A stretch of 64,000 bases of DNA from Escherichia coli (GTDB lineage Bacteria; Pseudomonadota; Gammaproteobacteria; Enterobacterales; Enterobacteriaceae). Below the pieces are notes generated by a model, which was not told where the DNA came from, did not search any database, and saw only the letters and a list, made by a program, of their open reading frames with translations. The stretch lies in assembly GCF_003334385.1 (NCBI RefSeq), contig NZ_QOWN01000007.1; one strand, given 5' to 3'. The translations under genes were made by a program, and so were the position numbers. Shown one piece after another: positions 61,483-61,512 of the stretch (within the stretch, counting starts at the first letter, position 1; each line of letters begins with the position of its first letter).

Positions 61483-61512
61483 ATGCCCCATTGATGCCCC
61501 ATTGATGCCCCA
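61483..61512. repeat. Short tandem repeat, about 2.7 copies of the 11-bp unit atgccccattg
   Basis: atgccccattg atgccccattg atgcccca read directly; lies inside the insertion, upstream of the dinI-like promoter. Confidence 0.5.

Follow-up and report, generated by a model that had tools for sequence, protein, structure and literature searches.

The window analysed here, a 64-kb stretch of Escherichia coli DNA (64,000 nucleotides), runs from chromosomal sequence into a lambdoid prophage. The chromosomal part contains btsR/btsS (yehT/yehU), which end at 61084, and then mlrA (yehV), of which the first 67 bp are present before the prophage cuts the gene. The truncated mlrA frame extends into the phage DNA as an ORF of 61 amino acids (61283-61468, + strand), and mlrA is therefore inactivated. 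The product of mlrA is a regulator of curli and biofilm formation, and in O157 strains prophage insertion in mlrA is known to affect curli and biofilm. From 61200 to its end (2.8 kb), the window is 100% identical to the strains referred to here as G1/2, G6/7 and G8. A homologous junction exists at yehV in the Stx1 prophage VT1-Sakai (Sp15), in whose database record an attachment core of 20 bp, a promoter, dinI and an SOS box are marked.

The features of the junction are collected in Table 1. The dinI-like gene was recognized by a match to the DinI model that falls below the curated cut-off, and RefSeq names its product 'DinI-like family protein'. Its putative promoter is made up of a -35 element, TTGACA (61529-61534), and a -10 element, AAAAAT (61553-61558). 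In VT1-Sakai, only the second of the two LexA-box-like sequences is annotated, as a putative SOS box. The cargo beside dinI consists of an orf-156-like gene (62058-62531, - strand) and a gene for a 441-residue YadA-type adhesin (62622-63947, - strand), which resemble the immunoglobulin-binding Eib proteins of the ECOR-9 prophages (P-EibA/C/D/E). No stx gene was seen in the prophage part of the window or in the annotated stretches of G1 and G6.

Table 1. Features at the mlrA-prophage junction, in window coordinates.
Feature	Position	Strand	Basis and remarks
mlrA (yehV) 5' fragment, truncated by the prophage	61292-61358	+	Translates as MALYTIGEVALLCDINPVTLRA; annotated as yehV' in VT1-Sakai; partial CDS in RefSeq
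att core	61339-61360		20-bp identity CCTGTCACGTTACGCGCGTG (61339-61358) closes the mlrA fragment; attachment site annotated in VT1-Sakai
Core-proximal block ACATTTTTAAAAATCGACGAAGATCGTCCAGGAGCGC	61364-61400		Shared by three arm types that differ in their cores, as seen on aligning 21 distinct arms
10-bp tandem repeat TCGACGAAnT	61439-61465	+	Tandem Repeats Finder: period 10, 2.7 copies, 88% matches, score 40, consensus TCGACGAACT
Putative arm-type unit 1, degenerate, GTGTCCCAT	61472-61480	+	In register with the array, 11 bp ahead of its first ATGCCCCAT
Putative arm-type units 2-4, three ATGCCCCAT with TG spacers	61483-61513	+	Tandem Repeats Finder
Putative sigma-70 promoter of dinI	61529-61558	+	Consensus scan, 10/12; same promoter annotated in VT1-Sakai
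Two LexA-box-like sequences, CTG-N10-CAG	61535-61550 and 61564-61579	+	First in the -35/-10 spacer, second just downstream
dinI-like gene, first prophage gene at this end	61595-61843	+	ORF; NCBIfam PRK10597 DinI, E = 3.9e-18

Inspection of the core, together with a scan, revealed a perfect inverted repeat, GTCACG (61342-61347) and CGTGAC (61355-61360), on either side of a 7-bp spacer, TTACGCG (61348-61354). This is how core-type integrase half-sites usually look around an overlap region, and we infer that the two hexamers are such half-sites, with TTACGCG as the presumed overlap region. The core-proximal block is a candidate binding site for an accessory protein, which might be a host bending protein or Xis.

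The first-pass annotation had drawn attention to an 11-bp tandem repeat at 61483-61512, just inside the insertion boundary. Tandem Repeats Finder returned a perfect repeat ending at 61513 (consensus ATGCCCCATTG, period 11, 2.8 copies, 100% matches, score 62), and this was the sole tandem repeat with a score of at least 50 in the window. By our arithmetic, about 0.5 copies of the exact 9-mer ATGCCCCAT would be expected by chance in the window; four are present, and three of these four lie within the array. The lone extra copy (62552-62560), about 1 kb into the prophage between the orf-156-like and adhesin genes, is probably a chance occurrence. A degenerate fourth unit, missed earlier, was found in register with the others, and the full array comprises four RTGYCCCAT units, one every 11 bp, with the 2-bp spacers ac, tg and tg. 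It lies 113-155 bp inside the prophage as measured from the 20-bp core that ends the mlrA fragment, a distance at which the earlier description of its position holds.

Matching repeats, which had been proposed as a check, were indeed found at the other end of the prophage. In G1/2, the end opposite to the dinI end has the prophage's own xis and int together with the 3' part of mlrA, and the last codons of int contain GTGTCCCATgtATGCCCCAT, 53 bp from a 20-bp core identical to that of the window. The pair GTGTCCCATnnATGCCCCAT thus recurs in the int-side arm in the same orientation, and its two units are the only matches to RTGYCCCAT in 28 kb. VT1-Sakai shows the same arrangement, with the pair GTGTCCCATnnATGCCCCAT in the 3' end of int. 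A natural attP was present on one viral contig (L129, IMGVR_UViG_2585427735_000006, 7700-8050), where the 3' end of int, a unit pair, the core, the arm, the units and dinI are all found together. This contig is an excised, circular or permuted phage genome, and it confirms the attP that we had reconstructed. When positions are counted from the centre of the 7-bp core spacer, the units extend from -85 to -66 in the int arm and from +121 to +162 in the dinI arm, where they end at +151 in the usual allele with two ATGCCCCAT copies. The gap between core and units is 53 bp on the int side and about 111-113 bp on the dinI side.

The far end of the prophage in G6/7 at first looked like a refutation. 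The prophage that starts at the mlrA'-dinI junction in this genome (NZ_CP060061.1; our stretches L003/L004) has as its far end an ompW-type int that lacks the motif, located beside ompW and followed by yciC through adhE, whereas in G1/2 (NZ_CP060083.1; L126) the same dinI junction has its cognate partner. In view of this difference, G6/7 appears to have undergone a large chromosomal inversion through recombination between two lambdoid prophages, that in mlrA and one at ompW, and the apparent counter-example was set aside. In G6/7, attR and its cognate attL would then be far apart and inverted.

Occurrence of the motif in both arms of the attachment site directs attention to the integrase. The integrase of VT1-Sakai contains an Arm-DNA-bind_2 domain (PF12167) at residues 7-70 (E = 1.2e-23) and a Phage_integrase domain (PF00589) at residues 203-396, and G1/2 encodes an integrase of 428 amino acids, WP_032308692.1, at the corresponding position. 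Among solved structures, sequence relatives were found only for the catalytic part of the protein. The RTGYCCCAT unit is distinct from the core half-sites GTCACG and CGTGAC. We consider it likely, with a probability of roughly 0.8, that arm-type integrase sites make up the repeat and that these form the distal cluster on the non-int arm, equivalent to the P arm of lambda, in the attachment site of the lambdoid prophage at mlrA/yehV; the window contains this arm as the junction at the tail-fibre/dinI end of the prophage. Recombinase arm-type sites were among the functions proposed in the first-pass annotation, and this proposal is supported both by the motif at the two ends and by its conservation in homologous elements, as described below.

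A comparison with Stx2_EH2201 is informative with respect to the integrase. Stx2_EH2201 has a different target gene (NCBIfam PRK10302), which is probably yecE, and a different core, CCGTCAC(T/A)TTAACTGC(A/G)TG, and carries the same arm as the window from the core outward. Its integrase and the mlrA-type integrase are identical at 74 of 74 positions over the arm domain and at 99 of 122 and 175 of 232 positions after it, as would be expected if arm specificity were shared and core specificity had changed. The integrases of lambda and HK022 are related in this way, with the same arm specificity and different core specificity. Similarly, the mlrA-type and the probable yecE-type integrases share the arm domain (100%) and the motif and differ in the core-binding/catalytic part and in the core, the relationship in our case being deduced from sequence comparison. 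In the 48.7 kb of Stx2_EH2201, taken on both strands, RTGYCCCAT occurs five times, and all five occurrences lie in the two att arms in a single orientation. The count alone is not significant (5 observed against 1.6 expected over all 48.7 kb, with as many as 7 in shuffled sequence), so that the signal resides in the clustering and the shared orientation; by our arithmetic, about 0.01 motifs would be expected within the roughly 330 bp of the arms.

Conservation of the units was assessed with relatives of the integrase that were gathered by protein similarity and without use of the motif, which provides an unbiased test. Even in integrase lineages of 72-83% identity, the 3' end of int contains two units at an 11-bp spacing (ATGTCCCAatgATGCCCCAT, TTGCCCCATccATGCCCCAT and ATGCCCCATtaGTGCCCCAT). 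Across nine lineages, synonymous sites are nearly saturated and 17 of the 230 codons for conserved residues are invariant, one of these being the CCA proline codon inside int-side unit 1. A change of proline to serine in one lineage (CCC to TCC) leaves a sequence that still fits RTGYCCCAT. The int-side copy is part of a coding sequence, and (V/A)PxMPH, the C-terminal peptide, could account for some of its conservation. With the 11-bp period, successive units fall in different reading frames, as do the three units of L064, each of which is read in a frame of its own. The repeat is therefore a feature of the DNA rather than of the protein.

The repeat is also kept in the non-int arms of homologous elements. 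The units are fixed across arms while the spacers between them vary (AC, TG, AG, AT, CC, GT and GC), a constancy that is partly by construction in that most arms were gathered with the exact motif as the search pattern. A third type of arm, found in L040, L060, L075, L123 and L200 (Enterobacter sp. MGH 24), has a different core (CATGCCCATCACATG) and a umuD-like gene in place of dinI. Only the core-proximal block of 37 bp is common to this arm and that of the window, and the unit pair is located 109 bp from the block, as compared to 108 bp in the window.

The number of units differs between elements. Two copies of ATGCCCCAT are present in 15 of the 16 viral contigs with the window's arm (in one of which, L037, the second copy has a 1-bp deletion), in VT1-Sakai and JLK-2012, in Stx2_EH2201 and in four close E. 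coli relatives. Three copies are present in the window, in G6/7 and in strain 2018-166, and are implied for G1/2 and G8 by their 100% identity to the window; a third copy was gained independently in L044, which has a JLK-type arm. Independent gains in the window lineage and in L044 argue for slippage, by which exactly one 11-bp unit has been gained recurrently. Slippage, as suggested earlier, can account for the additional unit but offers no reason for the presence of the units as such. Were the array a functionless microsatellite that slips neutrally, with the likeness in the 3' end of int left by an old duplication or illegitimate recombination, both the polymorphism in copy number (2 or 3) and the mutational instability seen as the 1-bp deletion in L037 would be accounted for. 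We regard this as quite unlikely, since every homologous arm examined has at least one unit pair, across three arm types and several cores, and the position is held within 1 bp while the spacers vary and the sequence between block and units has diverged. In addition, codons on the int side are invariant against a saturated synonymous background, and the motif tracks the arm domain of the integrase.

The proximity of the array to the dinI promoter raises a different explanation, namely that the units regulate this SOS promoter from upstream, as the binding site of an activator or repressor or as an UP-like element, in the region of about -40 to -90. The last unit stops 16 bp short of the -35 element, and a precedent for dual use exists in the IntS/TorI module of KplE1 (CPS-53) at argW, where arm-type and RDF sites were mapped in the prophage junction and found to overlap and regulate the intS promoter (PMC2951348). 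In our case too, the array abuts a promoter. However, the promoter in KplE1 is that of the integrase gene and its regulation was shown experimentally, whereas the neighbour of the array here is the SOS-type promoter of dinI. The third arm type keeps the unit pair without dinI, and the units are therefore separable from the dinI promoter. Arms that lack dinI or such a promoter hold the pair at an equal distance from the core, units also lie inside the int coding region of the other arm, and the G+C-rich units are unlike an UP element, all of which makes a role confined to dinI very unlikely, with a small probability left for a promoter-related role in dinI-type arms. For arm-type sites it can further be imagined that unit number acts as a tuning knob, set by slippage, for the efficiency of excision or integration, and that integrase bound at the array, next to the SOS-regulated dinI promoter, also modulates dinI during induction, like IntS at the intS promoter of KplE1. 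We consider this extension of the arm-type reading unlikely.

Accessory recombination proteins also bind in att arms, and the units might be recognized by one of these (IHF, Fis or excisionase) instead of by integrase. IHF in particular had been suggested in the first-pass annotation. The units do not resemble the IHF consensus WATCAANNNNTTR, and no match to it within one mismatch overlaps the repeat; in the reconstructed attP, the sole match within one mismatch lies between the core and the arms, at about +57 to +69. The sites for excisionase in lambda are found on one arm only, whereas RTGYCCCAT is found on both arms, and it co-occurs with an identical integrase arm domain in phages with different targets. 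Recognition of the units by an accessory protein in place of integrase is thus highly improbable. The LexA box, CTG-N10-CAG, is absent from the units, both such sequences being downstream of them. The term 'iteron' that had been applied to the repeat is loose, as there is no sign of a replication origin: the array has the att core, dinI and cargo genes as its neighbours, and in relatives the replication genes are far from this end and nearer to the int end. A scan of 61000-62100 against Rfam gave sub-threshold chance matches only.

A second short repeat had been noted ahead of the first. This repeat, TCGACGAAnT, is real, with its earlier coordinates off by 1-2 bp, and extends from +88 to +114, 6 bp on the core-proximal side of unit 1. 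The sequence TCGACGAA is restricted to the dinI arm of the reconstructed attP, and its earliest copy, a third one that had been overlooked, is at 61377 in the core-proximal block. By analogy with lambda, where Xis sites are laid out next to P2, we tentatively propose TCGACGAAnT as a candidate excisionase site. Our confidence in this assignment is low because the repeat, while conserved in dinI-type arms, is not conserved in the third arm type. The Xis itself is a protein of 84 amino acids, to which no NCBIfam model matched.

Taken together, these observations suggest the following model for the arm-type units. The C-terminal domains of the integrase would bind the half-sites GTCACG and CGTGAC and cut within or beside TTACGCG, and the N-terminal arm-binding domain (PF12167) would bind the 9-bp RTGYCCCAT units, which lie head-to-tail every 11 bp, or about one helical turn. 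Bending of the DNA between core and arm would allow the integrase to bridge the two and to assemble a recombination complex for integration or excision, as in lambda, and excision between attL and attR would additionally require Xis. Gain of one unit would preserve the helical phase, since it adds 11 bp.

The system proposed here resembles that of lambda in several respects. Each has a tyrosine recombinase with two DNA specificities, predicted in the present case, and with an N-terminal domain set apart for arm binding. In both, the short arm motif bears no relation to the core half-sites, neighbouring sites follow one another head-to-tail at about one helical turn, and int has its 3' end towards the attachment site. 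The arm motif of lambda is C/AAGTCACTAT, the arm domain of its integrase belongs to family PF09003, and its P2 site is inverted. In contrast, the motif here is RTGYCCCAT, the domain is PF12167 and all units have one orientation. The non-int arm has the tandem array, with three to four units, and the int arm the pair, which is the reverse of lambda, and the int-side sites lie within the int coding sequence. A further difference lies in IHF, for which the scan gave no clear consensus site. The P set of lambda is about 100 bp away from its core and the P' set about 50 bp (PMC9791396), and the clusters described here are similarly placed, with about 50 bp between core and units in the int arm and about 100 bp or more in the other.

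Another system for comparison is VT1-Sakai, with related prophages, which shares the 20-bp core, the arm, the dinI promoter and the SOS box at yehV/mlrA. The window differs from it in having three ATGCCCCAT units rather than two and a prophage that carries the Eib-like adhesin. In the literature searched, from which most subscription journals were absent, we found no description of these sites, and the VT1-Sakai record carries no annotation of the repeat. The array is most likely an ordinary example of a known mechanism, the lambda paradigm, in an apparently undescribed set of sites, and in this copy it has one unit above the usual number.

Many lambdoid prophages of E. coli, those with Shiga toxin among them, share the integrase family and its arm, whether in mlrA/yehV, at a probable yecE site or elsewhere. 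The RTGYCCCAT motif and its geometry allow full attP, attL and attR sites to be annotated beyond the 20-bp core, and the arm motif may help to predict which prophage ends remain competent for excision. Such competence bears on the mobility of Stx phages and on the restoration of mlrA. Exchange of only the core-binding part of int would explain the swapping of targets in these phages. Conceptually, nothing here goes beyond the lambda paradigm.

We also scanned 298 Gb of contigs with the degenerate pattern RTGYCCCATNNRTGYCCCAT, for which about 140 chance matches are expected by our arithmetic. Among the matches listed, most were chance-like and in unrelated taxa and a few in Enterobacter and Citrobacter were relevant, and the scan was therefore uninformative on taxonomic spread. 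One match, in Streptococcus mitis (L168, NZ_NCVH01000031.1), is located just past the stop codon of a tyrosine-recombinase-like gene; at chance level, it is probably a coincidence.

The unrelated ompW-type integrase is associated with a different tandem repeat, TTTTGCAGAG, and not with RTGYCCCAT. When the tandem TTTTGCAGAG pattern was searched for in ompW-type phages, it matched int-side arrays only and none in the far arm. The array follows directly after the stop codon of the ompW-type int (31684-31704 in L004; also L333-L342), and is probably a second arm-type array that is also variable in copy number. It has three units in nine of ten viral contigs and two in G6/7 and L333, so that both the window-type and the ompW-type arrays occur with either two or three copies.
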